64,000 nucleotides of DNA from an uncultured Nitrospiraceae bacterium (lineage in GTDB: Bacteria > Nitrospirota > Nitrospiria > Nitrospirales > Nitrospiraceae): NCBI GenBank assembly GCA_963730935.1, contig CAVSTP010000003.1:512001-576000 (forward strand), written 5' to 3'. Positions 6,619-39,269 of this stretch are shown here, one piece after another. The notes under the pieces were generated by a model. That model did not search any database. It was not told the DNA's origin and was given only the letters and a program-made list of their open reading frames with translations. Numbering within the stretch: the first letter of the stretch is position 1; every line of letters starts with the position of its first letter. The position numbers and the translations under genes are program-made.

Positions 6619-7884
6619 ATGGCGATCAAACGTCCCCCGTCGCTCGCGCAACTGGAACAGGCGCTGAAGGAAAAGACCCGTGAAGTCGATGTGCTGCATC
6701 GAATCACGGATTCGATCAGCAATACCCTTGATCTGGAAGCCGTTCTCAAGCACATCGTGGAGATCGTCGTTGAAGTGACGAAAGCCGACGCCTGTCTGCT
6801 GTACTTGTTGTCCGACGGCCAAGACGAACTGATCCTCCGCGCCTCCAAAAACCCGCACCCCAAGCTGATCGGACGGATTACGATCGGCATGGGCGAGGGC
6901 ATCACCGGGTGGGTGGCCCAAGAGCGCACGCGCGTCGTCATCCCCAGCAATGCCAGCGACGACCCCAGGTTCAAATTCTTCCACAATCTCCCAGAGGACC
7001 GGCATCAGGCCTTCGTGTCGGTCCCGATCATGGCCAAGAAGGAAGTGGTCGGCGTGATCAATGTGCAGCACAAACGTCCCAAGCGATACCGGCCGGATGA
7101 GCTGGCGTTGCTCTCGACCATCGCCAATCAAGTGGGAGGGGCGATCGAAAACGCGCGGCTGTATGAGCAGATGCGGCGCAAGGCCTTGCAGGTCGAGACC
7201 CTGTCACAGGTATCGGAAACGGTTGCCTCCAGCCGCTTGATCGAAGACGTGCTGCAGCTTCTGGTTACGATGACGGCTCAAGTGATGAATTCAAAGATCT
7301 GCTCGATCATGCTGCTGGACGAGACGACCGGAGATCTCCACATCGAGGCCACCCAGAGCCTGAGCGAACACTACCGGCGAAAGCCGAACCTGAAAATTGG
7401 TCAGAGCGTGAGCGGACGCGCGGTGCAGGAGCGCCGGCCGATCATCGTCGGTGATGTGACGAAGGAGCAGGACTACATGTATCCGGACATGGCGAAGAAA
7501 GAAGGCCTCTGTTCGCTCCTGTCCGTGCCCATGATGGTCCGTGAAAAGGCGGTGGGCGTCATCAACAGCTACACATCGGTGCCTCACGCCTTTACAAGTG
7601 AGGAGGTCAAGCTCCTGCAGGCAATCGCCAATCAAGCCGCGATCGCGATCGAGCACACGAATCTCCTGGAAAAGTCATTCGAAATGCAGGAGGCCTTGGC
7701 GGTTCGCAAATTACTCGAGCGGGCGAAGGGGTATCTGATGCGGGCCAAGAAGCTGACCGAAGAAGAGGCCTTCAAGCTGATTCAACGGCAAAGCATGGAT
7801 CTTCGAAAATCGATGCGGGAGATCGCGGAGGCCGTGCTGCTCGCGGGCGAACTGGAAGAACGGGCGGAAAAGCAACGAGGATAG
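6619..7884 (+). CDS. GAF-GAF-ANTAR domain RNA-binding antitermination regulator
   Basis: Two GAF repeats (GEGITGWVA...SVPIMAKKEVVGVINV; GQSVSGRAV...SVPMMVREKAVGVINS), then ANTAR RKLLERAKGYLMRAKKLTEEEAFKLIQRQSMDLRKSMREIAEAV. Confidence 0.93.
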   Translation: MAIKRPPSLAQLEQALKEKTREVDVLHRITDSISNTLDLEAVLKHIVEIVVEVTKADACLLYLLSDGQDELILRASKNPHPKLIGRITIGMGEGITGWVAQERTRVVIPSNASDDPRFKFFHNLPEDRHQAFVSVPIMAKKEVVGVINVQHKRPKRYRPDELALLSTIANQVGGAIENARLYEQMRRKALQVETLSQVSETVASSRLIEDVLQLLVTMTAQVMNSKICSIMLLDETTGDLHIEATQSLSEHYRRKPNLKIGQSVSGRAVQERRPIIVGDVTKEQDYMYPDMAKKEGLCSLLSVPMMVREKAVGVINSYTSVPHAFTSEEVKLLQAIANQAAIAIEHTNLLEKSFEMQEALAVRKLLERAKGYLMRAKKLTEEEAFKLIQRQSMDLRKSMREIAEAVLLAGELEERAEKQRG

Positions 7885-7885
7885 G

Positions 7886-8779
7886 CTACCGTTGAGGGAC
7901 GGTGTGTTGGGGCTGTGAGCGGGCGCGTTCGGCTTGTTGCTCTGCGAGCTGCTTTTTGATCTCCTGTAATTCCTTCCGCAGTGCTTCGATCTCAGCATCC
8001 TTTCGAACCGGTTCAGCGGTCCCTCCATTCGTTGCTTGAGGTGGAGCCGGCGCGGGGGACGACTTCGTCGAGGCAGGGACGCTGGAGGCCTCCGGCAACA
8101 TCGCCAGCAATTCCCAGTCAATCACCAGCGTGTGGCCGGTCGAGCGGGCACCCAGGTAGCTCTCGGGCCGTTTTGCGGCTTCGGGCAGAAACGACACTGT
8201 GCGGTTCGCTAATCCCGTCGCATCCGAGATCTTGCGGTTGGCCATGTTGATGGTTGTTGTTGGTTCCTCTCTCGAGCGATATCGGGTCAATGTGATATAG
8301 AGGGAACGACCATAGGCATACAGGGCGCCGTTCGTGGATTCACGCGGGTGAAAACTCATGAGCGGCTCGGAGCCGACGTCCGCACCGGTGTGTTCCGAGA
8401 GCCCGGGTTGCCCCACCTGCCTTACCGCAAATTCAACCTGTTGATCCGATGCCGCGCGCCTGAGACTTTCGGTGATGAGCGGCGCAAGGTAGCCGACTTC
8501 ACTCCCTGAAAACGCTCGACGGGCGTCCGCGGTTCCGACGCGATTCTGCACCGCCCCCTGATTGTCGTGAATCACGATGCCGCTCAAGGCGAGCGCGATC
8601 GTGCTCGGATCGATTTTGATCGGATGTGCGGCTTGAAATGAGCGTTCCGAGATCCGTTTCAGATAGACCGCCCCTTGAGGGGAATCGTCGATCTTGATAT
8701 CGAGCTCAGGTCCGGTAGAGCAGGCAGGAAATAGGAGTGCGACGAAGAGCGCGCTGGTTATATGACGTCGGGCCGGCAT
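7886..8779 (-). CDS. Hypothetical lipoprotein, paralog 1
   Basis: Lipobox-like LLFPAC; C-terminal coiled coil; clear similarity to the adjacent ORF. Confidence 0.7.
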   Translation of the reverse strand: MPARRHITSALFVALLFPACSTGPELDIKIDDSPQGAVYLKRISERSFQAAHPIKIDPSTIALALSGIVIHDNQGAVQNRVGTADARRAFSGSEVGYLAPLITESLRRAASDQQVEFAVRQVGQPGLSEHTGADVGSEPLMSFHPRESTNGALYAYGRSLYITLTRYRSREEPTTTINMANRKISDATGLANRTVSFLPEAAKRPESYLGARSTGHTLVIDWELLAMLPEASSVPASTKSSPAPAPPQATNGGTAEPVRKDAEIEALRKELQEIKKQLAEQQAERARSQPQHTVPQR

Positions 8780-8812
8780 GGCATCACTCGAGAGAGATAC
8801 TCTCCGCACGCA

Positions 8813-9754
8813 TCAGGGTGCTTTGCCGGACGGTTTTCCCATGTCCCGCCGGATATCTTCCATTTCCTTCTTCAGATTCTCGATTTCGACATCTTTCTTT
8901 TTCATCTCTTCCCGAATCTGCTTGAAGTCCTGGTCCTTGGCGTCCGGAGGGACGTTCGAGTCTGACGGGCGTTTCCCGGTGGCAGCAGCCGGCGGTTCTC
9001 CAATGGCCGGAAGTTGAGCCAACTGTCGATAGTCGATGACGAAGACGGTGTCCGGAGTGCTGCTGAACAGTCCGGCCTTCCCGTTGGACTTCAACGCTTC
9101 TTTCGGCTCAAACACCAATTCTTTGTCCGCTTGACCGGTTGAATCGGGCAACCGCCGGTTGGCCATGTTGATGGTGTCCGGTTGTTCAGCCCGTTTCCCG
9201 AACTCGCTCACGGTCAGATAGAGCCACTGGTCTTGGGCCAACAGATGTCCCGAGGTCGTTTCGAGCAGCGTCGCATTGGTGAGGAGAGGATCGGACGATC
9301 CCACGCCTGCCCCGCTCTTGCTCGCGTAGGAAAGCTCTGGCGGATACTTGTGCACTTGAAACCCGACCTGCTGATCCGGGGCTGCCTGACGGAGCGCCGC
9401 GGCCAGGAAGGGAGCCAGAAAGCGGATATCGTCCTCGGAGAATGCCCGGGTCATGGACGACGGCTTTGAAAACGCCGTTTGAAGGGCAGTTTTCCGCTCC
9501 GTGACCCTGACGCCGCTCAGTGCGCGAGCGATGACCCCTTCCTCGATCGCAATCGGGTGGGCCGCCTTGAACCCGCGGTCCGGAATACGCTCGAGATACA
9601 CCGATCCCCTGGGCGCTTCGTGCACCGACGGTATCCACTTCAGGCGCATGGGCACATCCGTTGATCAGCGCGAGACTCGGCGGCGATCAGTCGAAAGACA
9701 TCGCCGCAGACGTATTGTGGTCCTGTGCGTAGCTCGGTAGACGATGGGAGGCAT
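8813..9754 (-). pseudogene. Hypothetical lipoprotein, paralog 2, with frameshifted signal-peptide region (body 8813-9655 intact)
   Basis: Shares YL.RI..R.F.AAHPI and TINMANR..D.TG.A motifs with paralog 1; lipobox LALINGC lies in another frame; ATG 9754 is in frame with the body but cut by TGA at 9667-9665. Confidence 0.55.
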
Positions 9755-9800
9755 AGTTCGCCGCGAGTGTAGCATAGGGTCTGGTGTCCAGGAAAATGCC

Positions 9801-9829
9801 TTGACAATCTCCAAGCAGGGTCTTATAAG
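9801..9829 (+). promoter_or_regulatory. sigma70 promoter of porin-urtABCDE
   Basis: TTGACA (9801-9806), 17 nt spacer, TATAAG (9824-9829). Confidence 0.75.
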
Positions 9830-9854
9830 CGTGCCTCACGTACCGACAGAGAGA

Positions 9855-9946
9855 AGGACAATGGGGTCCTGATCGACGGTACGGTCATCATGAGGACAAC
9901 GGCGTCCTTTTGGTCCAAGGTCTGGACCGGAAGGGCGTTTTTTTTT
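9855..9946 (+). promoter_or_regulatory. ANTAR-type twin-hairpin leader plus overlapping intrinsic terminator (site 1, urea uptake operon)
   Basis: AGGAC-AATGGG-GTCCT (9855-9870), AGGAC-AACGGC-GTCCT (9893-9908); 17-bp terminator stem incl. G-U pairs 9901-9939, with T9 at 9938-9946. Confidence 0.85.
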
Positions 9947-10005
9947 GTGTGAGGCCCTCCGGTGTCACAAGGTAATGGGATAGCCGAACAGGAGGGAGGT
10001 TTCTC

Positions 10006-11421
10006 ATGACGAGACAGTTCGTGCGAAGCGCCGGGCACGTGGTGTTCGGTGCGATTCTCATGTGCAGCGCCGTGCCTGTATTCGCGCAGGTCAGCGCCGA
10101 AGAAGCCGCTGGGGGCGGACAAATCATCCGCAAGGAAAAGGAAGAACCGTCTGTGGCTCACCTTTGTGCAGGATGCGTTGCCCCCATGTTTACCCAGGGA
10201 AGCAAGGGCACCCTCACTCCGTACGGACGAATCGAACTGGATGGCATCTATAGTACGAGAAATACGAACCCTCTAGATCCTCAGCAGTTCAATGGGTACG
10301 GAACGGCGGCTGGCCGCCAAGACAACAGCAGCTCCACCCTCAATCCCCGCTATAGCGTGTTCGGACTTCGCGCCGACAGAACGGACGGTCAGCACAGCCT
10401 GGCAGGCGTCGTCGAAGTGGACTTCTACGGCCAATCGGACAGCGGCAACAACCTCTTGCCCCGTCTACGTCTGGCCTATGCGAAGTATTCTCCGAACAAC
10501 AGTAAGACGACGTTCATAATCGGGCAGGATTGGAATCCCATCATGGGATTGCTGACTGACAACATCGACTTTTCGATCATGGGCTATACCGGTAACCTCT
10601 GGCAACGTATTCCGCAGATCACGGTGAGGCAGAAGTTTTCAGAAAATTTCGAAGGGCTACTTACAGTGATGCGCTTCGAGCGTGGGTTGTCGAACTGTTG
10701 CGGCAATACCCAAGCCCGACCGACTACCGGCACGGGTGGCAATGGAGGCGGACCTGGAAGTACAAACGCCTTCAGCGATCCGGTGCAAATGCCCTATTTC
10801 GGAACTCGGTTCGCCTACAGCGGGACCGGGAACATGGCGGGGACGATGATTGCCGCGAATGCCGCCTACCGGTACTACCGGTCTGCGCCATTGGTTGGTG
10901 GAGGGGCCAATCCTGCGACCTTCACGTCGGGAAAGGATATTAATTCCTACCTCCTGGGTCTGGAAGTCGTGCATCAACTGACCAAGCAGCTGAGGTTCAT
11001 GGGCGAGCTGGCGTACGGACAGGCGCTCGGGAACGAATGGTTCCGGTGGAATCAAGATCTGAACTTCATCACAGGAGCCCCGGTACGCACGATGACCTCC
11101 TGGTTCCAGCTGAGCTACGCCCATTCGAGGGACTACACGTTCCTGTTTGGGTACGGCCTCGACAATCCCAACGACAAAGATTTGAAAGGTAGCATCAACG
11201 CCTACGGCACCGCACCGGGGTCGGCCGGCTACAACTCCAGCATCCAGTACCTCTCCAACCAGCGTACCTATCTGACGGCGATTCATCCCATTTGGGCGGA
11301 TCTGATGATGGGGTTGGAGTGGCAGCATTTCTGGACCAACTGGGCCCAGCCGACCACCTACTTTTCCAAGGCGTCGAATCAGGCCGATATGTTCACACTG
11401 TCCGCCTGGTACAACTTCTAA
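10006..11421 (+). CDS. Outer-membrane porin (DcaP/FmdC-like), probable urea/amide entry porin
   Basis: Signal peptide, amphipathic beta strands (YGRIELD, VVEVDFYG, PRLRLAY), C-terminal AWYNF; first gene of the urt operon. Confidence 0.75.
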   Translation: MTRQFVRSAGHVVFGAILMCSAVPVFAQVSAEEAAGGGQIIRKEKEEPSVAHLCAGCVAPMFTQGSKGTLTPYGRIELDGIYSTRNTNPLDPQQFNGYGTAAGRQDNSSSTLNPRYSVFGLRADRTDGQHSLAGVVEVDFYGQSDSGNNLLPRLRLAYAKYSPNNSKTTFIIGQDWNPIMGLLTDNIDFSIMGYTGNLWQRIPQITVRQKFSENFEGLLTVMRFERGLSNCCGNTQARPTTGTGGNGGGPGSTNAFSDPVQMPYFGTRFAYSGTGNMAGTMIAANAAYRYYRSAPLVGGGANPATFTSGKDINSYLLGLEVVHQLTKQLRFMGELAYGQALGNEWFRWNQDLNFITGAPVRTMTSWFQLSYAHSRDYTFLFGYGLDNPNDKDLKGSINAYGTAPGSAGYNSSIQYLSNQRTYLTAIHPIWADLMMGLEWQHFWTNWAQPTTYFSKASNQADMFTLSAWYNF

Positions 11422-11457
11422 CGATGGTCTGGACGAAAGACTGCCGACCAAAGGAGA

Positions 11458-12822
11458 TTGAGCATGAGTGAGACCAAAAAAAATGATATGACGACCGCAC
11501 CGCCGCCGGCGGAGCCGGGATCTTCACGCCGGGAATTCCTCGTGCAGGGTTCAAAAACCGCAGCCAGCGTGGGCATCGCCGCGCTGCTCGGCAATCTGGG
11601 TCATTGGGCGCTGTCCTATGCCGCCGACAAGGAGCCGATCAAGGTCGGCGTCCTGCATTCGTTGAGCGGCACGATGGCGATCAGCGAAGTGTCGCTGCGC
11701 GACGTCGTCTTGATGGCCATCGATGAGATCAATGCGAAGGGCGGCATCCTGGGGCGTCAGGTCAAACCAGTCGTGGTCGATCCGGCTTCAAACTGGGATC
11801 TGTTCGCCGAAAAAGCCAAGCAACTCTTGTTGCAGGACAAGGTCGCCGTGGTCTTCGGCTGCTGGACCTCGGTGAGCCGGAAGTCGGTGCTGCCGGTCTT
11901 CGAGAAGAACAACGGTCTGTTGTTCTATCCCGTCCAGTACGAAGGGGAAGAATGTTCGCACAACGTGTTTTACACCGGCGCGGCCGTGAACCAGCAGGCG
12001 GTGCCGGCGGTTGATTACCTGATGAGTAAAGAAGGCGGAGGGTACAAGAAGTTCTATCTGCTGGGCACCGATTACGTCTATCCACGGACCACGAACAAGA
12101 TTCTCCGTGCCATGTTGCTGGCCAAAAAGGTGCCGGAGGCCAACATCATGGAAGAGTACACGCCGTTCCACCACCAGGACTATCAGACCATCGTCGGCAA
12201 GATTAAGAAGTTCTCGGCAGGCGGAGGAGCGGCCGTCATCAGTACGATTAACGGCGACAGTAACGTCCCCTTCTACAAGGAATTTGCCAACCAGGGCCTG
12301 CGCGCCGAAGATGCGCCCATTATGGCCTTTAGCGTGGCCGAAGACGAGTTGCGCGGGATGGATACGACCGCGCTGGTCGGCCATCTGGCGGCCTGGAATT
12401 ACTACCAGAGTGTCGATACGCCGCAGAACAAGAAGTTCGTGGCCGATTTCAAAGCCTATTGCAAGAAGAACAACTTGCCGGACGGCGAGAAGCGGGTCAC
12501 GGACGATCCGATCGAAGCAGCCTATTTTGGCGTCCATGTCTGGAAGCAGGCGGTGGAAAAGGCCGGGAAGACCGATGTTGATGCCGTCCGCAAGGCTGTG
12601 TATGGTCAAAAGTTCCTGGCGCCGGGCGGAGAAATCATGATGGACACCGGCAACCATCATACGCACAAGCCGGTGTTGATCGGAGAAATTCTCAAGGACG
12701 GGCAGTTCAAGACCGTCTCGCGCTCGAAAGGATTGGTCAAGCCGGAGCCCTGGAGCGAGTACACCAATCCTGACAAGGGATGTGACTGGATCAGTCATCA
12801 AGGCACGTATCAGAAAAAGTAA
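11458..12822 (+). CDS. urtA: Urea ABC transporter substrate-binding protein
   Basis: Tat-like [50 protein letters not shown] motifs. Confidence 0.95.
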
Positions 12823-12833
12823 GGGAAGGGGTT

Positions 12834-12987
12834 GAGAGAAGCGGGTCCTGTCATTGACCAGCCCAGCCATCCTCGCACCCCGCCCGGTGTGGGGCCCCGC
12901 TGCGGGTGCTTGGTGAAAGCCGCGTCTCGGCGCGGCAAGGGTGGGGGGGTGAGAAGGCTCCCAGGTCAATGCCACCCGCTTTCTCTC
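12834..12987. repeat. Intergenic palindromic repeat, family A, copy 1
   Basis: gagagaa-gcgggtcctg...ctcgcaccccgcccggtgtgggg...ccacccgc-tttctctc; core also found at 17.4-17.8 kb and 48.0 kb. Confidence 0.75.
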
Positions 12988-13061
12988 TTTGCAAGGGACA
13001 AGGGAGGCGGGACGAACCGATCCCTTCCCCTGTCCAAAAGTGCTTGAATTAAGCGGGTGAC

Positions 13062-14654
13062 GTGAAGAATATCCACGTCACCCGTTTGTCGTATTCAGGA
13101 GCTGCTGCGATTGTGACGCGATTGTCTCTAGGCGTGCTGTGGCTAGCCGGCGCCGTCTGGCTGGTTGCCGCTCACGGGCACGCGGCAAGCCCGCCGCCTC
13201 CTCCCTCCCTCTCGCCGCTTGAGCAGGCACTCTCACACATCACCAGCGAAGACGAAGCGGTTCGTGAGGCGGCACTGCGTGTCGTGATCGAACAAGGCGA
13301 CAGCTCGGCCATTCCGCGCCTCGAGGACATCCGCGCCACTGCCGACCGGCCCATCCGCCTGGCCATCAAACCGGTGATGGACCTGCTCAAGAACCGGGCG
13401 AAACTGGAGAGTCCTGAGGCGGATGTCCGGCGCTCGGCCGCAACGGATCTGGGAATGTTGGGAAGGCCTGTGGCCATTCCCTGGCTGGAACAGGCGGCGG
13501 GCAAAGAGACGAATAAATGGGTGCGCTATACCATGCAGGAGTCCGCGGCACTGCTGAAGCTCGCTGGTGATGATCAGGTTGCCAAGCTGGTCGCTGTGCA
13601 CACGCTGGGGGAACTGGCAAGCCAAAATGCCGTTCCGGCGTTGCAAGAAATTGTGAACGTAGGAACAGCGGAGGGCGCGAGCGAACCTCAACAATCCCTG
13701 GCCAAGGCCGCCCGTGCCTCAATTGAGCGCATCGAAACCTGGGCGGTGTGGTCGGCCGCGATCGAAACGCTGTTCCGAGGCGTCAGCCTCAGCTCGATTC
13801 TCTTGATCATGTCGGTGGGGCTCGCAATCATCTTCGGGCTCATGGGCGTGATCAATATGGCCCATGGTGAGCTGATGATGGTTGGCGCCTATGCGACCTT
13901 CATGACTCAGGAGGCCTTCAGGGCGTTTTTGCCTCCCACCATGTTCGATTATTATTTTGCCGTGGCGATGCCCATGGCCTTCCTTGTTGCAGCCGGCTGC
14001 GGCATGTTGCTCGAGGTGACCGTCATTCGCTTCCTCTATGGCAGGCCGCTGGAAACGATGCTGGCGACCTGGGGCATCAGTCTCGTGCTCATGCAGGCCG
14101 CCAGGGTGTACTTCGGCGATTTGACCGCCGTGACTGCGCCGGCTTGGCTCAGTGGCGGGCTTCAAGTAATGGTCGGGGTCTATCTGCCCAACAACCGGCT
14201 GTTCATCATTCTACTGTCCGTGATCTGCGTCCTGACGATCTATGCCATCTTGTTTCGCTCGGGTCTTGGTCTGCGCGTCCGCGCGGTCACCCAGAACCGG
14301 AACATGAGCGCCTGTCTCGGCATTCCTACGAGAAAAGTCGACGCGTACACGTTTGCATTCGGCTCCGGTCTGGCCGGCATCGCCGGATGGGCCCTGACGC
14401 TGATCGGCAACGTCGATCCGGGACTGGGCCAGAATTACATCGTTGATTCGTTCATGGTGGTGGTGACGGGCGGGGTGGGCAAACTGGCCGGGACGATTGT
14501 CGCCTCACTGGGCATCGGGGGCCTCAATAAGCTGCTCGAGCCGAGCCTCGGCGCCGTCTACGGCAAGGTCTGCATTCTCGTGCTGGTCATTCTCTTTCTT
14601 CAATGGCGCCCGTCCGGATTATTTGCGATCAAAGGACGCCATGCAGATTCGTGA
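13062..14654 (+). CDS. urtB: Urea ABC transporter permease UrtB with N-terminal HEAT-repeat-like domain
   Basis: GLAIIFGLMGVINMAHGELMMVGAY, LYGRPLETMLATWGISL, GQNYIVDSFMVVV. Confidence 0.93.
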   Translation: MKNIHVTRLSYSGAAAIVTRLSLGVLWLAGAVWLVAAHGHAASPPPPPSLSPLEQALSHITSEDEAVREAALRVVIEQGDSSAIPRLEDIRATADRPIRLAIKPVMDLLKNRAKLESPEADVRRSAATDLGMLGRPVAIPWLEQAAGKETNKWVRYTMQESAALLKLAGDDQVAKLVAVHTLGELASQNAVPALQEIVNVGTAEGASEPQQSLAKAARASIERIETWAVWSAAIETLFRGVSLSSILLIMSVGLAIIFGLMGVINMAHGELMMVGAYATFMTQEAFRAFLPPTMFDYYFAVAMPMAFLVAAGCGMLLEVTVIRFLYGRPLETMLATWGISLVLMQAARVYFGDLTAVTAPAWLSGGLQVMVGVYLPNNRLFIILLSVICVLTIYAILFRSGLGLRVRAVTQNRNMSACLGIPTRKVDAYTFAFGSGLAGIAGWALTLIGNVDPGLGQNYIVDSFMVVVTGGVGKLAGTIVASLGIGGLNKLLEPSLGAVYGKVCILVLVILFLQWRPSGLFAIKGRHADS

Positions 14655-14777
14655 GGGGCACTGAAAATGGTTTTACACGGCGTTCTCGGTCGCGCGCGCG
14701 CCTCGACATGCCAGGCACCGTATGCCTCGGCGCTCGAGTTCCCTGCGGCCTTGTGTAAAAACCATTTTGAGTGTCCC
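14655..14777. repeat. MITE/REP-like element, family B, copy 1 (between urtB and urtC)
   Basis: Terminal inverted repeats gggcactgaaaatggttttacac / gtgtaaaaaccattttgagtgtccc; internal cgttctcg...ctcgacat...ctgcggcctt shared with the 57.9 kb copy. Confidence 0.7.
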
Positions 14778-14799
14778 AGACTGTGTCAACGGGGTACGC

Positions 14800-16700: not shown

Positions 16701-16712
16701 GGTTGGGATCCG

Positions 16713-27159: not shown

Positions 27160-27189
27160 TTGACACCCCGTAAGTCGCGGTGCTATTCT
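27160..27189 (+). promoter_or_regulatory. sigma70 promoter of nadE-amt-glnB-glnD-glnA
   Basis: TTGACA (27160-27165), 18 nt spacer, extended -10 TGc-TATTCT (27184-27189). Confidence 0.65.
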
Positions 27190-27203
27190 CCGCGCACGCA
27201 ATC

Positions 27204-27292
27204 GGAGACAACGGAGTCTCCAGATCACACGGAAACCTCTCACGGACAACGACGTCCTCGGTCCTAGTTAGGATCAGAGGACGTTTTTTTTT
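27204..27292 (+). promoter_or_regulatory. ANTAR-type twin-hairpin leader plus terminator (site 2)
   Basis: GGAGAC-AACGGA-GTCTCC (27204-27221), GGAC-AACGAC-GTCC (27244-27257); terminator GACGTCCTCGGTCCT..AGGATCAGAGGACGTT with T9 ending 27292, 4 nt before the nadE ATG. Confidence 0.85.
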
Positions 27293-27296
27293 GCCT

Positions 27297-29069: not shown

Positions 29070-29090
29070 TGGGTGACGGAGAATGTCAGT

Positions 29091-29263
29091 CAGGATGCTC
29101 AAAAAGGCCGCCGTTTTCACCCGCCCCGCCCCCACGCGCCGAGACGCGTCGTTTCCACGAGGAGGCGCAGCGAGAAACGAGGCAGGCGAGAAGCAGCTGA
29201 CGGAGGAGTGCGCGTCCCGGCGCGACGGGGTGGGTGGGTGAGAACAGATTTTTCAGCGTCCTG
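29091..29263. repeat. MITE/REP-like element, family B-like, copy 2 (between nadE and amt)
   Basis: Ends caggatgctcaaaaa / tttttcagcgtcctg; same terminus type as the 57.9 kb copy. Confidence 0.7.
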
Positions 29264-29280
29264 CTACGAGAGGAGGCAGC

Positions 29281-30543: not shown

Positions 30544-30598
30544 TGCTGAAAATTCACCTCCGCGTTCGGTCATGTGCGCTCCACGCCAACTCCTCTAG

Positions 30599-30946
<348 letters not shown>

Positions 30947-30954
30947 TACCGACC

Positions 30955-33627
30955 ATGGAACTGGAATCCTCCTCCGCCTCCCTTTCACACACGACCAGTA
31001 TCGTCCAGGTGCTTGATGAGCATCGGGCGCTCGTGGCACGCCGCGTGATGGCCGGCGCCTCGGGCGCCGAGACGCTCGCTGCGATGACGGAATTCGTCGA
31101 CGGGTTGATCATCGGGCGGTATCGAGACGCAATGCGACAGGGCGGTGACGAAACGGCGACCGTCGGCATGCAGCAGTGCTGTCTGATGGCCTTGGGCGGC
31201 TATGGGCGGCGTGAGCTGGCGCCACAATCGGATATTGATCTGATGTTTTTGTATCAGGCAGGGTCCGGCAAACCGGTGGAATCGCTCATCCGCGCGGTGC
31301 TGCACCCACTGTGGGATTGCGGATTTCAGGTCGGGCACAGTGTCCGGACCATCGCCGACAGCATCGAGCTGGCGGAAACCGACGCAACCGTGAAGACGTC
31401 CATGATGGAAGCGCGGTTCCTGGCTGGAAGCTCGGACCTCTTTCAGGAGTTTCATCGCAAGTATTGGCGGAAGATTGTGTCCAAGAACAGCGATTTGTAC
31501 CTCGACCAGAAGCTCGAAGAGCGGCGCCGGGAGTATCAGAAATTTGGGGAGACGGTGTATCTGCTGGAGCCGAACGTCAAGAAAAGCAAGGGCGGTCTGC
31601 GGGATCTCCATCTGCTGCAATGGGCGGGCATGGCTCGCTTTCAAGCACCGACCATCCGGGAGCTTTCCGACCGAGGCATCCTTTCGCGGGCGGATTCGCT
31701 GGCGTTGACGGAAGCACGGGAATTCCTGTGGCGCGTGCGTGCGCTTCTCCACGTCCACGCGGGAGCCCCTCAAGAGATCCTCACGTTTGACGAGCAGGTC
31801 TGGCTCGCGCAGCACTTCGGCTATCACGATCAACCGCATTTGCTCGCGGTCGAGCAATTTATGCAGCAGTACTACCAGCACACGATGGGATTGCACGAGC
31901 GCTGCATGCGGTTCGTGGAACGGTGCCGCAGCGTCCCGTTCTGGCAACGCCTGTCCCGCTTTTTGCCAGCTCCTCGAGTCGACGAGTACTTTGTGGTGCG
32001 GGGCAGTTTGCTTTCTGTTGCGGATGAGCATCGCAACAAGGTGCTCGACAGCCCGGCGCTCTTGTTACGGCTGTTCGACCTGGCGCGAGCAAGGAAGTTG
32101 ACGATCGTGCCTCCTTTGATCGAAGACATTCACAGGCACGTCGATCAGGTGCCGGCCGACGCCTACCGCACCGCGGAGGTCAGCAACGGATTTCTGAGAA
32201 TCCTCGCCGGGCCCGGCACGACCGCCACCCTGGAGGCCATGCACCGCGCGCATCTATTGGAGAAGCTCGTGCCGGCGATGGGCACCGTGCGCGGGCTGAT
32301 GCAGTTCAATCAGTACCATAAGTACACCGTGGATGAGCACAGCCTGCTGGCCGTCGGCCGCGCCGAAGCGCTTGGACAGGATGCCGGCGTGCTCGGCGAG
32401 GTCTACCGTGGCATCAAACGCAAGGACATCCTTCACCTGTCGGTCCTGATGCATGATCTGGGCAAAGGGCAGGAGGAGGATCACAGCGACGTCGGAAAGC
32501 GGTTGTCGGAGGAGGTCGCCGTTCGGCTGGGATTCGACGAGCAGGAAACGAGGACGCTTAGCTTTCTCGTGCACCGGCATCTCCTCATGGCGCACACGGC
32601 CTTCCGTCGTGATCCAAACGACGAAAAAGTGGTCCTCCCCTTCGCCCGCGAAGTGGGGACGCCGGAAGTCCTCAAGAAGCTGCTCGCGTTGACGGCAGCC
32701 GACATTGCGGCTGTGGGACCTGGCGTCCTGACGAAATGGAAAGAGTCGTTGTTGATCGAGCTCTACACGAGAACCATGCCGGAAGTGTCGGGCGGTCGTG
32801 ACGAGCAGGGAGCGCCTGAACGATGGTCGAAGGTGGTGGAAGAGGTCTCTCGGAATATGAGCCAGGCCGGCCATGGCGAGAGCGACCACGCATGGATCGA
32901 TGCGCAATTGAAACAATTCCCCGAGCGGTATGTCTACGGCACAGGCGGGGACCGCATTGCAGCCCACTTGACTGCCGTGCGCAGGCTTCACCGCGGCGAC
33001 GTCGTGGTCGAAACGGATTTCGACCGAGAATTGGGCGTCTGCGAGTATTCGGTGATTACGCATGACGATCTGACGCCAGGCATTTTCTCGAAAATCGCCG
33101 GTGTGATGGCGGGCAGCGGGTTGCAGATCCTCGATGCGCAAATTCTCACCCGGGCGGACGGTATTATCGTCGACACCTTTCAGGTGACCGATCCTGATTA
33201 TCAAGGGGAGCCGCCTGTCGAGCGGCGCCAAACCGTCGGCGATCGCATCGCGGCAGTGCTCAAAGGATGGGAGCACGTCGACGACGTACTTCGGCGTGGC
33301 GCCCGGTTGAAGCTCACCAAACCGTTGCCCAAGGCGCCAGAGGCGACTGAGGTGCGCATCGACAACGAGACGTCGGACAGCTGTACGATCATTGATGTCT
33401 TCGCCGACGACCGCCAAGGGTTGCTCCACATCATCACCAACGCGATGTTTCAGCTTGGACTGTCGATTCACGCCGCCAGGATTTCGACTCGCCTGGACCA
33501 AGTGGCTGACGTGTTCTACGTGACCGATCAAGCAGGGGCCAAAGTACAGGACCATGGGCAATTGGAGCGGCTGCGAAGCGGAATCGAACAGGCGATCGAA
33601 AAATTCCTCGAAGTCAAAGCGGCGTGA
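30955..33627 (+). CDS. glnD: [Protein-PII] uridylyltransferase/uridylyl-removing enzyme
   Basis: ALGGYGRRELAPQSDIDL, LEPNVKKSKGGLRD, YHKYTVDEH, HD domain MHDLGKG, two C-terminal ACT domains. Confidence 0.96.
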   Translation: MELESSSASLSHTTSIVQVLDEHRALVARRVMAGASGAETLAAMTEFVDGLIIGRYRDAMRQGGDETATVGMQQCCLMALGGYGRRELAPQSDIDLMFLYQAGSGKPVESLIRAVLHPLWDCGFQVGHSVRTIADSIELAETDATVKTSMMEARFLAGSSDLFQEFHRKYWRKIVSKNSDLYLDQKLEERRREYQKFGETVYLLEPNVKKSKGGLRDLHLLQWAGMARFQAPTIRELSDRGILSRADSLALTEAREFLWRVRALLHVHAGAPQEILTFDEQVWLAQHFGYHDQPHLLAVEQFMQQYYQHTMGLHERCMRFVERCRSVPFWQRLSRFLPAPRVDEYFVVRGSLLSVADEHRNKVLDSPALLLRLFDLARARKLTIVPPLIEDIHRHVDQVPADAYRTAEVSNGFLRILAGPGTTATLEAMHRAHLLEKLVPAMGTVRGLMQFNQYHKYTVDEHSLLAVGRAEALGQDAGVLGEVYRGIKRKDILHLSVLMHDLGKGQEEDHSDVGKRLSEEVAVRLGFDEQETRTLSFLVHRHLLMAHTAFRRDPNDEKVVLPFAREVGTPEVLKKLLALTAADIAAVGPGVLTKWKESLLIELYTRTMPEVSGGRDEQGAPERWSKVVEEVSRNMSQAGHGESDHAWIDAQLKQFPERYVYGTGGDRIAAHLTAVRRLHRGDVVVETDFDRELGVCEYSVITHDDLTPGIFSKIAGVMAGSGLQILDAQILTRADGIIVDTFQVTDPDYQGEPPVERRQTVGDRIAAVLKGWEHVDDVLRRGARLKLTKPLPKAPEATEVRIDNETSDSCTIIDVFADDRQGLLHIITNAMFQLGLSIHAARISTRLDQVADVFYVTDQAGAKVQDHGQLERLRSGIEQAIEKFLEVKAA

Positions 33628-33665
33628 GGCCGGTGGGTTCCCAGGATTTCTGAAAGGAGGAGGGG

Positions 33666-35075
33666 ATGAATGTTCGTGAGGCGTTAGAGTTTGCAAAAAA
33701 GAACAGGGTGCAGGTCGTGGACCTGAAGTTCGTCGATCTGATCGGGACGTGGCAACATTTCACGATTCCGGCCAACGAATTGACGGAAGACCTGTTCAAG
33801 GATGGTTCCGGGTTGGACGGTTCGTCCATCCGCGGATGGAAAGCGATCAATAACAGTGACATGCTCGTTGTGCCTGACCCCGCCACGGCCTGCTTGGACC
33901 CCTTTACGTTGGTGCCGACGCTCAGCCTGATCGGCAATGTGGTCGATCCGATCTCGCGCGAGACCTATGAGCGCGATCCGCGCTACATCGCGCAGAAGGC
34001 GGAAAAATATCTCCAGAGCACCAAGATCGGGGACACATCGTACTGGGGGCCCGAAGCCGAATTCTTCATTTTTGATCACGCGCGGTACGACCAGACGAGC
34101 CATAGCGGCTATTACCACATCGATTCAGATGAAGGCGTGTGGAACATGGGCCAGGACGGCGTCAACCTGGGCGGAAAGATCCGCCACAAGGAAGGCTACT
34201 TCCCGGTGCCGCCGACCGATACGCAACAGGACATCCGCAGCGAGATGATCCTGGAGATGGAGAAGGTGGGCATCGCCGTGGAGAAACATCACCATGAAGT
34301 GGCCACCGCTGGCCAAGCGGAGATCGACATCCGGTTCGACTCACTGGTGCGCACGGCCGACAAAATGATGATGTACAAGTACATCGTCAAGAACGTCGCG
34401 CGCCGGCACGGCAAGACCGTCACCTTCATGCCGAAGCCGATCTTCGGCGACAACGGCAGCGGCATGCACACGCACCAGAGCATCTGGAAAGAGGGGAAGC
34501 CGCTCTTTGCCGGGAAGGAATACGCGGGGGTTTCGCAGATGTGTCTGCACTACATTGGCGGCATCCTCAAGCATGCGCCTGCATTGGCGGCAATCACCAA
34601 CCCCACGACAAACTCCTACAAGCGGCTCACGCCGGGATTCGAAGCGCCTGTGTTGCTGGCCTATTCCAGCAGGAACCGATCCGCCGGCATCCGGATTCCG
34701 ATGTATTCCCCGAGTCCCAAGGCGAAGCGGATCGAAGTCCGGTTCCCCGATCCTGGCGCCAATCCGTACCTGGCCTTCTCCGCCATGCTGATGGCCGGCC
34801 TGGACGGCATCGAGAACAAAATCAATCCGGGCGAACCGGCCGAGAAGGACCTGTACGATTTGGAGGCCAAGGAAGCGGCCAAAATCCGGACCATGCCTGG
34901 CAGCCTCGATGAAGCGCTCAGCAATCTGGAGAAGGATCACAAATTCCTCCTGAAAGGCGGCGTATTTACAGAGGATTTGATTGAGTCGTGGATCGGCTAC
35001 AAGCGGAGCAAGGAAGTTGATCCCATGCGGCTCCGGCCGCATCCCTACGAGTTTTTCCTGTACTACGACATCTAG
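33666..35075 (+). CDS. glnA: Glutamine synthetase type I
   Basis: [43 protein letters not shown], adenylylation-site DLYDL. Confidence 0.98.
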
Positions 35076-35088
35076 TCACTCGGGACTG

Positions 35089-35118
35089 TTGACGAGCGGG
35101 GAAGATGCATGCTACAAG
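35089..35118 (+). promoter_or_regulatory. Putative sigma70 promoter of the cyanate/amt/OCC block
   Basis: TTGACG (35089-35094), 18 nt spacer, TGc-TACAAG (35113-35118). Confidence 0.55.
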
Positions 35119-35132
35119 ATCTTTCAAGCTGA

Positions 35133-35313
35133 GCCAGGCAACGGCGCCTGGTTGAGCGTTCACGAGGTAACGGACAAAGGCGTCCGTCATTCTGCAAGGA
35201 ATGGCGGACGCCTTTCTAGTTTTTCGACATAGACGGCGCGGGTCGCTGCAGATCCGCAAGCACAGGGACAAAGGCGTCCTTCTCTCGACCGGGAGAAGGA
35301 CGCCTTTGTGTTT
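35133..35313 (+). promoter_or_regulatory. Tandem ANTAR-type leaders with two terminators (sites 3a and 3b)
   Basis: GCCAGGC-AACGGC-GCCTGGT (35133-35152), ACGGAC-AAAGGC-GTCCGT (35170-35187), terminator 35176-35224; degenerate CGAC-ATAGAC-GGCG (35225-35238), AGGGAC-AAAGGC-GTCCTT (35264-35281), terminator 35268-35313. Confidence 0.82.
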
Positions 35314-35351
35314 CGAACCCGGGGGATGTGGCTCAGGGAAAGGGGCGCATC

Positions 35352-36644
35352 ATGAGCGATCAAAATTCGGAAGGGTCAAATTCTTCCGAGCGGCACTTGG
35401 AGCGGACCCTCGATCAGGCCGTGACTGCCGCCGTGCTGCAGGCAGCCGGACCAACGCGGCGCCAATTGCTGATCGGTCTGGGAGCGGCGACGCTCAGCGC
35501 CATGATCGCAGAGATGTTTCCCTTGGCTCGACTGAAGGCATTTGCGGCGGATCCAGTGGGCAAGCCGGAGAAGAAGGATGTCAGTATCGCATTCATCCCC
35601 ATTACATGTGGAACGCCGATCATCATGGCCGAGCCGCTAGGGTTCTATAAGAAGCACGGGTTGAACGCATCCGTGAAGCGAGCGGCGGGCTGGGCCATGA
35701 TCCGCGACTGGGCGGTGAACAAGGAAGTCGATGCGGCCCATATGCTCACACCCATGCCTCTGGCGATTACGTTGGGCGCCGGCTCTCAGCCGACGCCGAT
35801 CTACATGCCGGCCGTCGAGAACATCAACGGGCAGGCCATCACGCTGCACATCAAACACAAGGACGTGAAGACTGCGGCCGATATGAAGGGTTTTCGCTTC
35901 TGTGTTCCGTTTGATTTTTCGATGCATAACTATCTGCTGCGGTATTTTCTCGCGGACGGGGGAGTGCATCCGGATAAGGATGTTCAGATCCGGGTGGTTC
36001 CCCCGGCGGAGATGGTCGCAAATCTCAAAGCCGGCAATGTGGACGGCTATCTGGGCCCCGACCCATTCAATCAGCGCGCCGTGTATGAGAATGCCGGGTT
36101 CATCTTCAAACTGTCCAAAGACATCTGGGACCGGCATCCCTGCTGCGCATTCACGGTCACGAAGGAATTCGCGACGACCTATCCCAATACGTTCCTTGCC
36201 ATGTGGCGCGCCATCGTGGACGCGACGCACTACGCGTCGGATCCAGCGCATCGTAAAGAAATCGCCGCAGCGATCGCGCCGACCAACTATTTAAATCAAC
36301 CAGTGACTGTGCTGGAGCAGGTTCTCACCGGCACATATGCCGATGGGCTGGGCAACATCCGGAAGGAACCGAACCGCATCGATTTCGATCCGTATCCCTG
36401 GCATTCGATGGCCATCTGGATTCTCACGCAGATGAAGCGCTGGGGGCATCTGAAGGGAGATGTCAATTACAAGACCGTGGCCGAGCAAGTCTACCGGGCG
36501 GCGGATTGCGACCGCATTGCCAAGGAGCTGGGCTATGCCACGCATCAATCGACGACGGCCAGGCACGTCATTATGGGGAAGGAATTTGACTCCAACAACG
36601 CCGACGCCTATGCGAAGAGTTTCAAAATTCACAGCATGGCCTGA
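35352..36644 (+). CDS. cynA: CynA/NrtA/CmpA-family ABC substrate-binding protein (probably cyanate and/or nitrite)
   Basis: Tat-like TRRQLL; FIPITCGTPIIMA, ENINGQAITL, VPFDFSMHNYLLRY, PDPFNQRAV, HPCCAF; upstream of cynS. Confidence 0.82.
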   Translation: MSDQNSEGSNSSERHLERTLDQAVTAAVLQAAGPTRRQLLIGLGAATLSAMIAEMFPLARLKAFAADPVGKPEKKDVSIAFIPITCGTPIIMAEPLGFYKKHGLNASVKRAAGWAMIRDWAVNKEVDAAHMLTPMPLAITLGAGSQPTPIYMPAVENINGQAITLHIKHKDVKTAADMKGFRFCVPFDFSMHNYLLRYFLADGGVHPDKDVQIRVVPPAEMVANLKAGNVDGYLGPDPFNQRAVYENAGFIFKLSKDIWDRHPCCAFTVTKEFATTYPNTFLAMWRAIVDATHYASDPAHRKEIAAAIAPTNYLNQPVTVLEQVLTGTYADGLGNIRKEPNRIDFDPYPWHSMAIWILTQMKRWGHLKGDVNYKTVAEQVYRAADCDRIAKELGYATHQSTTARHVIMGKEFDSNNADAYAKSFKIHSMA

Positions 36645-36653
36645 GGAGAAGCG

Positions 36654-37709
36654 ATGGAATCGATGAACCGTACGATGGTGCCAGAAGTCCCGACAGTCCC
36701 CGCCGAAGGTTCGATGAGGCTTCATTTCCAGCGGCTCCTGAAGGACTGGCCTTCATCCGCCTGGCAATGGGCGACGGGATGGCGAAGGACCCGGGAGACT
36801 CAGGCGGGGCGAGGAGGAGTCATGGCCGCTCGGTCGCAAGGTAACCCGTGGTACATCGCGGGATTTGTGCTCGTCGTGTTCCTGTTGAGCTGGCATTTCT
36901 TTACGCTTCGCTCGAGCTTCGATCAACGGGGGTTGAGCGAAGAACAGCTGCAGATGATGGAGTTCAACGGCGACATCGTGCGAGCAGCGGATGGAAGCTA
37001 CGCCTGGAATCCGGAAAAGGAGAAAGTCAAAGGCATCCCGGGTCCGCTGGCGGTGCTCGAGAAGGCCCGCGAAGAGCTGTCAGAGGCGTTTGTGAAAAAG
37101 GGCACCAACGATCATGGCATCGCCTATCTGGTGCTCTACACCGTCTCGCGGTTTGCCGGCGGGTTCCTTGCGGCCTCCGTCATCGCGATCATGGTGGGCG
37201 TCATTCTCGGGCTGAACAAAGTGCTCTTTCGTGCCGCGAATCCGTTTATCCAGATCATGAAGCCGATTTCTCCGCTGGCATGGATGCCCCTGTTGCTCTA
37301 TACCGTGAAAGATCCAAAGTGGACGGCGGTCCTTGTCGTGTTCATGGCGGCCGTGTGGCCGACTCTGGCCACGACGGCTTTCGGGGTCAGTTCCTTGAGG
37401 AAGGAGTATTTGCACGTCGCCGCGATCGTGCAGCTCTCATGGTTTCAGCGGCTCTTCAAGGTCATTCTCCCGGGAGCGGCGCCTACGATCGTCAATGGAC
37501 TGCGCATCTCCTTCGGAAGCGCGCTGGTCGCGGTGGTGCCTGCAGAGATGCTGCTCGGAGAACTGGGGGTGGGCTATTTGAGCTGGATCGAATGGAACAA
37601 CCTCGACATCGCCGGCGTCATTTTCGCGATCCTTGTCGTCGGGGTCGTCGGCGTGATTCTCGATGCGGGATTCAACAAACTGGCCGGCCTTGTCACCTAT
37701 CAGGAGTAA
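36654..37709 (+). CDS. cynB: CynB/NrtB-family ABC permease
   Basis: QIMKPISPLAWMPL, ILPGAAPTIVNGLRISFG, VPAEML. Confidence 0.82.
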   Translation: MESMNRTMVPEVPTVPAEGSMRLHFQRLLKDWPSSAWQWATGWRRTRETQAGRGGVMAARSQGNPWYIAGFVLVVFLLSWHFFTLRSSFDQRGLSEEQLQMMEFNGDIVRAADGSYAWNPEKEKVKGIPGPLAVLEKAREELSEAFVKKGTNDHGIAYLVLYTVSRFAGGFLAASVIAIMVGVILGLNKVLFRAANPFIQIMKPISPLAWMPLLLYTVKDPKWTAVLVVFMAAVWPTLATTAFGVSSLRKEYLHVAAIVQLSWFQRLFKVILPGAAPTIVNGLRISFGSALVAVVPAEMLLGELGVGYLSWIEWNNLDIAGVIFAILVVGVVGVILDAGFNKLAGLVTYQE

Positions 37710-37712
37710 CCC

Positions 37713-38573
37713 ATGTCCTTTCTCCAAATCGATCATGTCACGAAGTATTTTCCGAACCCGTCGGGTCCCGGCCAGGTGTGCATCTTCAAGGATGCCACCA
37801 TCAAGATCGAAAAAGGGGAGTTCGTGACCTGCATCGGCCATTCTGGCTGTGGAAAGAGCACGTTGCTCAACATCATTGCCGGGCTGGAAACGCCCAGTGA
37901 GGGCGGCATCATCCTCAACGGCCGTGAAGCCAGCGGGCCGGGGTTGGACCGGATGGTGGTGTTCCAGAACTTCGCGCTGATGCCCTGGATGACGGTATTT
38001 CAAAACATTGCGCTGGCCGTGCGTTCTGCCTATCCCGACTGGAGTCATGAACAAGTCACGGCCCATGTCAACAAATACATCGCGCTCGTCGGGCTCAAGG
38101 GAGCGGAGGACAAGCGGCCTACGGCCTTGTCGGGTGGCATGAAACAACGCGTCGGCCTCGCCCGGGCGTTTTCCATCGAGCCCAAGGTCCTCCTGCTGGA
38201 CGAGCCATTCGCGCAAATCGACGCCTTGACCCGAGGCGTCATTCAAGAGGAATTGATTCAAATGTGGAACACCTCGAGAAATACGGTGTTCATGGTGACG
38301 CACGACGTCGATGAGGCCATTCTGTTGTCCGACCGTATTCTCCTCATGACCAATGGCCCGGAAGCGCGAATCGCCGAGGTGGTGCACGTGTCGATTGCGC
38401 GGCCGCGGTCACGGGAAACGATCATCGAGCATCCGCATTACTATAAGATCAGGAACCATATCATCCACTTCCTCGTTCGCCACGCCAAACATGAGACAGC
38501 GACATCGGGTCCATCCACGAATGGGACGCCTGTCATCGTCAATTTTGAGGAGGGATCGGTTGTGACGCATTAG
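37713..38573 (+). CDS. cynD: CynD/NrtD-family ABC ATPase
   Basis: GHSGCGKST, GPGLDRMVVFQN, LSGGMKQRV, THDVDEA. Confidence 0.85.
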   Translation: MSFLQIDHVTKYFPNPSGPGQVCIFKDATIKIEKGEFVTCIGHSGCGKSTLLNIIAGLETPSEGGIILNGREASGPGLDRMVVFQNFALMPWMTVFQNIALAVRSAYPDWSHEQVTAHVNKYIALVGLKGAEDKRPTALSGGMKQRVGLARAFSIEPKVLLLDEPFAQIDALTRGVIQEELIQMWNTSRNTVFMVTHDVDEAILLSDRILLMTNGPEARIAEVVHVSIARPRSRETIIEHPHYYKIRNHIIHFLVRHAKHETATSGPSTNGTPVIVNFEEGSVVTH

Positions 38574-38679
38574 GCGTCGCGGCGAACGAAATACCTCAGC
38601 AGGGCCGGCACAGCCAGACGGACATCGGATGCAAGAGGCAACAATCGTCAATCACCGTTTCCACCAATGAGGGGGACCT

Positions 38680-39120
38680 ATGGATAAAGAAAAGGTGCGG
38701 ACCATTGTGAAAGAAAAGCGTCAGAAAAAGAATGTCACCATCGCCGAGGTCGCTAAAACCGTCGGCAAGAATCCGACCTTCGTGGCTGCCGCGCTGAATG
38801 GGAACCATCGCTTTACGACCGATGAAGCCAAGAAGGTCGGAGCGTTGCTGGAGCTGGACGGGGAAACGACGGCCGCTCTGAGCAAGTTTCCGGTTCGCAC
38901 CGATTTTCCGAATGCGGCGGATCCGTTCAAATATCGGTTGTTGGAAATTATCGGAGTCTACGGCGATTCGTTGCGCGATCAGGCCAATGAAATGTTCGGC
39001 GACGGCATCATGAGCGCGATCGATTTCACGCTGGACATGGAGAAAGTGACGGGGAGCCAAGGGGAAGCGCGCTGTAAGATCACCTTGAACGGGAAGTGGC
39101 TGGAGTACAAGACCTTTTGA
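38680..39120 (+). CDS. cynS: Cyanate hydratase (cyanase)
   Basis: N-terminal HTH-like domain; DPFKYRLLEI, EMFGDGIMSAIDF, ITLNGKWLEY. Confidence 0.95.
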   Translation: MDKEKVRTIVKEKRQKKNVTIAEVAKTVGKNPTFVAAALNGNHRFTTDEAKKVGALLELDGETTAALSKFPVRTDFPNAADPFKYRLLEIIGVYGDSLRDQANEMFGDGIMSAIDFTLDMEKVTGSQGEARCKITLNGKWLEYKTF

Positions 39121-39180
39121 GTCTTACTGGGAGGGGCTGAAGCCTCCATCGAAACGAGTTCATCGGTTGCGGAGCGGCTG

Positions 39181-39269
39181 AGACAGTGTCGTCTTTAGCC
39201 GGTCCGGGGCAAATGTGAACGGACAAAGGCGTCCGTCATTCGAAGAGAATGGCGGACGCCTTTGTGTTT
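39181..39269 (+). promoter_or_regulatory. ANTAR-type twin-hairpin leader plus terminator (site 4)
   Basis: AGAC-AGTGTC-GTCT (39181-39194), ACGGAC-AAAGGC-GTCCGT (39219-39236); terminator stem 39223-39241/39247-39265 followed by gttt. Confidence 0.8.

Follow-up and report, generated by a model that had tools for sequence, protein, structure and literature searches.

A GAF-GAF-ANTAR regulator gene and candidate dual-hairpin transcription attenuators of nitrogen operons in an uncultured Nitrospiraceae bacterium

The dual-hairpin RNA motif that is the target of ANTAR proteins was defined by Ramesh et al. (2012, PMC3369931), who also predicted, for many phyla, ANTAR regulons linked to nitrogen, upstream of genes for PII, for ammonium, urea and nitrate/nitrite transporters and for glutamine synthetase; in Desulfotomaculum acetoxidans, 13 motifs are distributed over 6 transcription units. 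The accessible main text and seven supplement files of that study do not mention Nitrospira. In the EutV/EutW system of Enterococcus faecalis, the eut leaders carry two hairpins with six-nucleotide loops whose first nucleotide is A and whose fourth is G (A1 and G4), the second hairpin being mutually exclusive with an intrinsic terminator (PMC3369931, PMC8934654). In Geobacter sulfurreducens, there is experimental support for an ANTAR antiterminator of the GnfK/GnfR system that acts on terminators ahead of nifH, glnK and amtB (Ueki and Lovley 2010, PMC2995071). Among one-component ANTAR proteins, only NasR and PAL had been characterised by 2020, and no GAF-ANTAR protein (PMC7496416); the available portions of a 2025 review (PMC12591593) name no characterised GAF-ANTAR protein either. 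Here we describe a 64,000-nucleotide (nt) stretch of DNA from an uncultured Nitrospiraceae bacterium (assembly GCA_963730935.1, contig CAVSTP010000003.1, positions 512,001 to 576,000), hereafter the window, which encodes a GAF-GAF-ANTAR protein close to an island of four nitrogen operons whose leaders carry paired hexaloop hairpins. All coordinates are those of the window, on the forward strand unless stated otherwise.

Nitrospira are the main nitrite oxidisers of soils and of wastewater treatment. A description of ANTAR control in Nitrospira did not turn up in our literature search, and an initial annotation of the window, made from the sequence alone, was aware of none; nor did we find anything in print on the regulation of nitrogen assimilation in these bacteria. 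From the anatomy, specificity, conservation and covariation of the leaders and their co-occurrence with the ANTAR gene, all directly observed, we consider it very likely that they are ANTAR-type transcription attenuators, read by the GAF-GAF-ANTAR protein encoded at 6619-7884 on behalf of nitrogen operons.

Leader anatomy and its specificity in the genome

Sequence reading and a hairpin script delineate five attenuator units (U1, U2, U3a, U3b and U4) in four leaders, at 9855-9946, 27204-27292, 35132-35313 and 39180-39269, and in four of the five units the pair of hairpins with six-nucleotide loops is canonical. Unless another source is named, the hairpins given below were found by both means. 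U1 is preceded by a sigma-70-like promoter, TTGACA-17 nt-TATAAG (9801-9829), which was recognised by reading; the promoter scanner accepts only -10 hexamers that end in T and does not list it. Hairpin 1 of this unit, AGGAC-AATGGG-GTCCT (9855-9870), is also present in the fold. It is followed at a loop-to-loop distance of 38 nt by hairpin 2, the putative antiterminator, GAGGAC-AACGGC-GTCCTT (9892-9909), and the terminator, a 17-bp stem and then T9 (9901-9946), holds the top rank in the terminator scan and is part of the minimum-energy fold. The loop-to-loop distance is again 38 nt in U2, between GGAGAC-AACGGA-GTCTCC (27204-27221) and GGAC-AACGAC-GTCC (27244-27257). Its sigma-70-like promoter, TTGACA-18 nt-TATTCT with TG upstream (27160-27189), was returned by the scan with 10/12 positions matching, and the fold gives a terminator with a bulged stem, followed by T9 (27251-27292). 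The ATG of nadE (27297) lies 4 nt past this T-run and has no visible Shine-Dalgarno sequence; in relatives the spacer (27284-27299) is longer.

The third leader contains two units in series. U3a stands behind a sigma-70-like promoter, TTGACG-18 nt-TACAAG (35089-35118), found by sequence reading and also unlisted by the scanner. Its hairpins, AGCCAGGC-AACGGC-GCCTGGTT (35132-35153) and ACGGAC-AAAGGC-GTCCGT (35170-35187), are separated by 36 nt from loop to loop, and its terminator, an 18-bp stem with the tail CTAGTTTTT (35176-35224), is given by both the terminator scan and the fold. U3b (35225-35279) is seen in the fold and is matched at 23.1 bits by the covariance model R1 described below, of whose training set it was not a member; its hairpin 2, GGAC-AAAGGC-GTCC (35266-35279, reading and fold), leads into a terminator with the tail GTGTTT (35268-35313, fold). 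In U4 the hairpins are GAGAC-AGTGTC-GTCTT (39180-39195) and ACGGAC-AAAGGC-GTCCGT (39219-39236), with a loop-to-loop distance of 40 nt, and the fold again gives a terminator with the tail GTGTTT (39225-39269). A scan of the window for sigma-54 promoters, with the consensus TGGCACN5TTGCW, gave no match at up to one mismatch, a result that is uninformative with 2.1 matches expected by chance.

In the minimum-energy folds (ViennaRNA) of all five units, hairpin 1 is kept and the terminator displaces hairpin 2. Since in every unit the terminator's 5' arm starts within the loop of hairpin 2 or immediately past it, the two structures are mutually exclusive, as the initial annotation had described. The nine loops that it listed were all reproduced by the hairpin script, each with A1 and G4, as were four of its five spacings (38, 38, 36 and 40 nt); the fifth is taken up below with the structure of U3b.

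Searched against the whole 4,045,564-base genome, R1, which was built from the four window units U1, U2, U3a and U4, returned only these training units and U3b, and the next match scored 15.3 bits (E >2). A broader model, R2, built from 74 sites in relatives, found the same five sites, followed by a match of 17.8 bits (E 0.32). The five-unit pattern is beyond chance, because R1 and R2 return only these five sites genome-wide. The ANTAR family (PF03861) is likewise matched once in the genome, by the gene at 6619-7884; with a single ANTAR gene and all five copies of the motif there, the regulator and all detectable targets lie in one island. Two weak matches in the same genome, C2:167322 and C2:515001, have no terminator and lie in coding-like sequence, and were taken as chance. 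Simpler searches were set aside: a loose script scan found 221 tandem A..G.. hexaloop pairs genome-wide, 15 of them with a T-run of at least 5 and just three of these 15 being island units, and it was replaced by the covariance models because it is too unspecific, while a regular expression for GAC-A..G..-GTC was discarded after hundreds of matches at coding sites. Rfam gave no gathering-score match to the leaders within the window and none at E <= 10 in 9700-10000, where it is not certain that Rfam 15 holds a model of this class.

Conservation and co-occurrence with the ANTAR gene

R1 matched 41 of 61 genomes, own included. Sites were found in all 36 other genomes of the same family, usually about 4 in each and clustered within about 40 kb, and in 3/10, 1/9 and 0/5 genomes of three other families of the order. 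Family f4 (genus g8), with genomes of 1.9-2.3 Mb, yielded neither ANTAR gene nor motif in any of five genomes. Thirty relatives' sites were drawn from 13 genomes; one of them (L056, in G041) is a truncated match in a coding region that looks like a false positive, and was set aside. The leader design is shared by all 29 that were retained, and 27 of these precede genes for UrtA, NadE, Amt, a BBP2 porin (with or without Amt), an NMT1_2 binding protein, GlnD or NirA. The genes that follow encode an NMT1_2 binding protein at six sites, a BBP2 porin at six (with Amt next in two), Amt directly at five, NadE at four, an unknown open reading frame (ORF) and then UrtA at three, and, at one site each, small ORFs and then Amt, GlnD, and a NirA-type nitrite/sulfite reductase; at the remaining two they are ORFs without Pfam match.

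Hairpin 1 pairs in 99.6% of cells when 68 distinct sites are compared, and three of its four pairs have changes on both sides; its covariation score is 0.317, whereas shuffles score 0.140, none of 500 reaching the observed value, and slid partners no more than 0.09. Hairpin 2 behaves differently, i.e. its core GGAC/GTCC is invariant in all 68 distinct sites and the closing C:G pair also never varies, which suggests a sequence-specific constraint. Hexaloops are present in 67 of 68 first hairpins of the relatives; G4 occurs in all 67 of them and in all 69 hairpin-2 loops, and A1 in 59/67 and 62/69, respectively. A downstream stem that takes up the 3' arm of hairpin 2, with at least 5 T among the 14 nt behind it, forms at 67 of 69 distinct sites, and the other two sites are near misses.

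Beyond the order there are two weak R2 matches, both directly upstream of glnA: L078 in G165, which belongs to another family within the class, and L083 in G079, of another family outside the class. At each locus a GAC-AAAGNC-GTC hairpin overlaps a terminator; the first hairpin is divergent in L078, and in L083 no first hairpin can be recognised. These glnA leaders suggest that the system is old within the phylum. Among the genomes sampled across the phylum, those outside the order often have ANTAR genes too, but R2 matches only 1 of 125 such genomes; the model is specific to the Nitrospirales variant.

Co-occurrence was scored in 151 genomes of the family with completeness of at least 90%, of which 127 have the ANTAR gene, 126 the motif and 36 amoA. 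Motif and ANTAR gene are both present in 123 and both absent from 21, with four genomes having the gene only and three the motif only; the two have been gained and lost together. Counts from related genomes are non-independent. The tallies include two unpublished genomes, G205 and G234, which have both gene and motif, and without them become 125/149 for ANTAR, 124/149 for the motif and 121 for both. This concordance, like the concentration of covariance-model matches ahead of nitrogen genes, is what the initial annotation had predicted.

The genomes with amoA fall into genera g14 (20 of 28), g18 (15 of 28) and g79 (1 of 1). In g14 the ANTAR gene is absent from all 20 amoA-positive genomes, and the motif also from 19 of them, while all eight amoA-negative genomes have both; the loss across the 20 genomes was probably a single event. 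The ANTAR gene is kept in amoA-positive g18 (15/15) and g79 (1/1), which rules out its loss from all comammox bacteria (complete nitrifiers). Five amoA-positive g18 genomes carry the motif ahead of genes for BBP2 porins, urtA, a Cache/PAS-domain protein and carbonic anhydrase. In one amoA-positive g18 genome (G285, locus L092), a copy of the motif precedes a gene for a carbonic anhydrase of eukaryotic type, some 3.6 kb from amoA. The amoA-positive g14 genome G161 shows the other state: aroB abuts nadE-glnB-glnA (L076, 11500-16009), with no amt, glnD, ANTAR gene or leader, and R2 with its filters off gave at best 15 bits at this locus, on the wrong strand. The amoA-positive G311, which has no ANTAR match, carries one intact-looking dual-hairpin/terminator leader of the nadE type (L088, reverse strand, about 1500), and the 1.5 kb downstream of this leader has no match to any window protein. 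Comammox clades are split by Rh-type versus Amt-type ammonium transporters (PMC6311188). The split of g14 and g18 with respect to ANTAR parallels this division and points to a rewiring of nitrogen control in complete nitrifiers.

The GAF-GAF-ANTAR protein and the operons downstream

The initial annotation had read the gene at 6619-7884 as GAF-GAF-ANTAR, and Pfam agrees, with GAF_2/GAF matches in two stretches (GAF_2 twice) and PF03861 at residues 356-407 of the 421 amino acids (67.4 bits, cut-off 27.3). The gene starts 4 nt past the stop codon of aroB. Homologues have 86-98% identity and mostly 421 amino acids; they come from Nitrospira or Nitrospiraceae, and their labels say no more than GAF or GAF-and-ANTAR protein. 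Between this gene and U1 are two ORFs of 307 and 280 amino acids (7886-9655, reverse strand), neither with a Pfam or NCBIfam match; several relatives have only about 1-2 kb between the ANTAR gene and the urt leader.

The ANTAR domain can be aligned with those of Rv1626, EutV and NasR. Eleven EutV residues that contact the hexaloop RNA (PMC8934654) were compared, of which six are identical in the Nitrospira regulator (R142, K143, K149, E160, M172 and R175) and two are conservatively changed (K147 to R and Y164 to F). GAF-A is closest, over residues 21-181, to the GAF structures of PtsP (3ci6, E 1.6e-23; 3trc, E 2.1e-17); the NCBIfam PtsP model matches in part, at 136 bits, and the NifA model likewise in part. 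The GAF domain of PtsP binds glutamine (PMC4848567). Because GAF-A is most similar to this glutamine-binding domain of PtsP/EI-Ntr, glutamine/2-oxoglutarate is proposed as the putative signal.

Pfam and NCBIfam bear out the gene calls that the initial annotation had made in the island. The first operon (10006-17423) consists of a conserved ORF without family match (10006-11421) and urtA, urtB, urtC, urtD and urtE. UrtA matches TIGR03407 at 585 bits, the permease and ATPase genes have Pfam matches, and the order of ORF and then urtA is also found at three relatives' loci (L031, L035 and L053). The UrtB permease (13062-14654) has N-terminal HEAT repeats (PF13646). The second operon (27297-35075) encodes nadE, amt, glnB (PII), glnD and glnA. 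The third (35328-39120) encodes the binding protein, permease and ATPase of an NrtA/CynA-type ABC transporter, and the cyanase cynS (NMT1_2, BPD_transp_1, ABC_tran and Cyanate_lyase); its ATPase matches the ntrCD model at 335 bits, above the cut-off. This is the operon preceded by the serial attenuators U3a and U3b, and two attenuators in series recur ahead of the ABC-transporter operon in relatives (L033, L037, L041, L043, L047 and L052); the loop of the first hairpin in the second unit has G4 without A1. The fourth operon (39262-45043), assigned with Pfam, comprises two amt genes and those for a Rieske protein, a cytochrome b and a multihaem (octahaem-type) cytochrome c.

That one regulator serves these operons, as the initial annotation proposed, is supported comparatively by the sole ANTAR gene, by the position of all five sites in the island and by the recurrence of such leaders at nitrogen genes. 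Its further claim of a nitrogen "master switch" is not shown, because there is no motif at the urease genes (20110-25816, reverse strand) or at the UT urea channel gene (26017-27066), and the genome has 24 NtrC-family matches. As all 24 fall under the equivalog cut-off (the best at 478 bits against 558.6), NtrC is neither demonstrable nor excludable. The sole Rfam match in the window is 5_ureB_sRNA (24518-24818, forward strand, 64.1 bits), antisense to the gene for the urease alpha subunit, and may merely reflect conserved urease coding sequence.

Mechanism, alternatives and relation to known systems

The antitermination mechanism that we propose is drawn from this anatomy and from comparative genomics. 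Transcription would begin at the constitutive-looking sigma-70-type promoters of U1, U2 and U3a, and U4 could be an attenuator inside a transcript that continues from cynS. By default the nascent RNA would form hairpin 1 and the long terminator, and polymerase would halt at the T-run before the first gene. The active GAF-GAF-ANTAR protein, probably a dimer like EutV, would bind hairpins 1 and 2 at their hexaloops (consensus C-A..G..-G), and hairpin 2, so held closed, would sequester the 5' arm of the terminator and permit read-through. The predicted targets of read-through are urtABCDE, nadE-amt-glnB-glnD-glnA, the ABC transporter with cynS behind two serial attenuators, and amt-amt-Rieske-cytochrome b-octahaem cytochrome. 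Cellular nitrogen status, perceived through the GAF domains, is the likely signal, low glutamine and/or high 2-oxoglutarate presumably being the "on" state. Public metatranscriptome contigs that map to 26500-45500 are short pieces from related strains (at most 0.26 of words), in which neither starts nor ends nor any bridging of a leader is seen, and are unable to show 3' ends or read-through.

Several observations weigh against this interpretation. U3b lacks a strong, canonical first hairpin. One option has the loop ATAGAC at 35229, with A1 and G4, and this is the basis of the 41-nt spacing given in the initial annotation, but the stem (CGAC/GGCG) has only 3/4 pairs and lies outside the minimum-energy fold; the other, which is in that fold, is the 7-bp hairpin GCGGGTC-GCTGCA-GATCCGC (35238-35257), 25 nt ahead of loop 2. 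The U-tracts of U3b and U4 are interrupted (TTTGTGTTT), a simple terminator scan that ranks U1 and U3a first regionally does not list U2, U3b and U4, and sequence reading found no recognisable promoter for U4. Pairing in hairpin 2 is argued from complementarity and not from covariation, because its core is invariant. Three of the 11 EutV contacts, R168, N173 and R177, are replaced in the regulator by Q, D and S; Rv1626 also has F in place of Y164, Q in place of R168 and D in place of N173, with T in place of R177. The putative ligand is assigned from GAF-domain similarity alone. Finally, 7 of the 151 family genomes are discordant, G020, G220 and G311 having the motif without an ANTAR match, and G222 and three g18 genomes having the ANTAR gene without the motif under stricter filters.

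Some of these points could be accommodated by other explanations. Real attenuators might be read by a metabolite, i.e. as riboswitches, or by another RNA-binding protein, with the ANTAR protein acting on different targets. An invariant core such as that of hairpin 2 is found in many ligand-binding RNAs, and the three genomes with motif and no detectable ANTAR gene would fit as well, but we think this unlikely given that the loops obey the ANTAR A1/G4 hexaloop rule, that the leaders match no Rfam family, that motif and gene agree so widely (123 genomes with both and 21 with neither, of 151), and that the ANTAR gene lies 1-2 kb from the first leader in several relatives. The terminators might instead mark the 3' ends of the genes before them (UT, glnA and cynS) or insulate these genes, the small hairpins serving as RNA-stability elements and no read-through being regulated. 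U1 cannot be such a 3' end because it follows divergent genes. The terminators of U2, U3a and U4 do lie 100-200 nt past an upstream gene on the same strand, and U4 has no visible promoter; against this, promoter-like sites stand between the upstream stop codon and the hairpins of U2 and U3a, the overlap of hairpin 2 and terminator is retained at 67 of 69 sites despite differing terminator sequences, and the leaders vanish together with the ANTAR gene, all of which makes this explanation very unlikely.

We see an equally slight chance that binding of the protein to the hairpins affects translation or RNA stability instead of termination, as in actinobacterial ANTAR RNAs, for which translational repression has been reported (bioRxiv 10.1101/660928). 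The start codon of nadE, 4 nt past the T-run of U2, would be compatible with such an effect; however, every unit has a strong stem and a T-run, and the hairpins are clear of ribosome-binding sites and start codons.

A more far-reaching view is tentative, and we would rather doubt it than adopt it at present. In Nitrospirota the protein could be a global nitrogen regulator of the one-component kind, responding directly to glutamine or 2-oxoglutarate and controlling, after initiation and in place of control of the NtrBC type, practically the whole of nitrogen uptake and assimilation (ammonium, urea, cyanate, nitrite and glutamine synthetase/PII/GlnD). One comammox lineage might have discarded it, with its leaders (20/20 genomes for the regulator and 19 for the leaders), once ammonia became the energy substrate. 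If this view is true, the nitrogen status of nitrifiers would be readable in situ from the proportion of leader reads to gene reads. The locus offers a concrete, testable circuit of one regulator, five RNA sites and four operons. It is also a tractable entry to the GAF-ANTAR proteins, a large class that was uncharacterised as of 2020 (PMC7496416).

The mechanism itself, ANTAR antitermination, is already known, and it is well supported that the nitrogen regulon of Nitrospira is a new instance of it. With the eut system the Nitrospira leaders share the two A1/G4 hexaloop hairpins and the exclusion of the second by a terminator, and of the 11 RNA-contact residues of the EutV ANTAR domain the regulator has six unchanged and two conservatively changed, while three differ. 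However, EutV is a response regulator of REC-ANTAR type, under the control of a kinase and devoted to the use of ethanolamine, whereas here a one-component protein with two GAF domains would act on targets in nitrogen uptake and assimilation, and the stem of hairpin 2 (GGAC/GTCC) is invariant in sequence, unlike that of the eut leaders. The conserved element of GnfR, CAGGCAANGGCGCC, resembles hairpin 1 of U3a (GCCAGGC-AACGGC-GCCTGG); GnfR differs in being a REC-ANTAR protein that is second in a cascade under the sigma-54-dependent GnfL/GnfM (PMC2995071), while the promoters described here are sigma-70-like. The nasF leader and NasR of Klebsiella oxytoca, NasS/NasT and AmiC/AmiR are further cases of ANTAR antitermination of nitrogen-source genes, and NasR is a one-component ANTAR protein too, but their sensors are a NIT domain or the partner proteins NasS and AmiC, and each serves a single pathway. 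In extending over several operons of nitrogen genes, the regulon resembles those predicted by Ramesh et al., in which the type of sensor was not addressed; here a protein with two GAF domains is the putative sensor.

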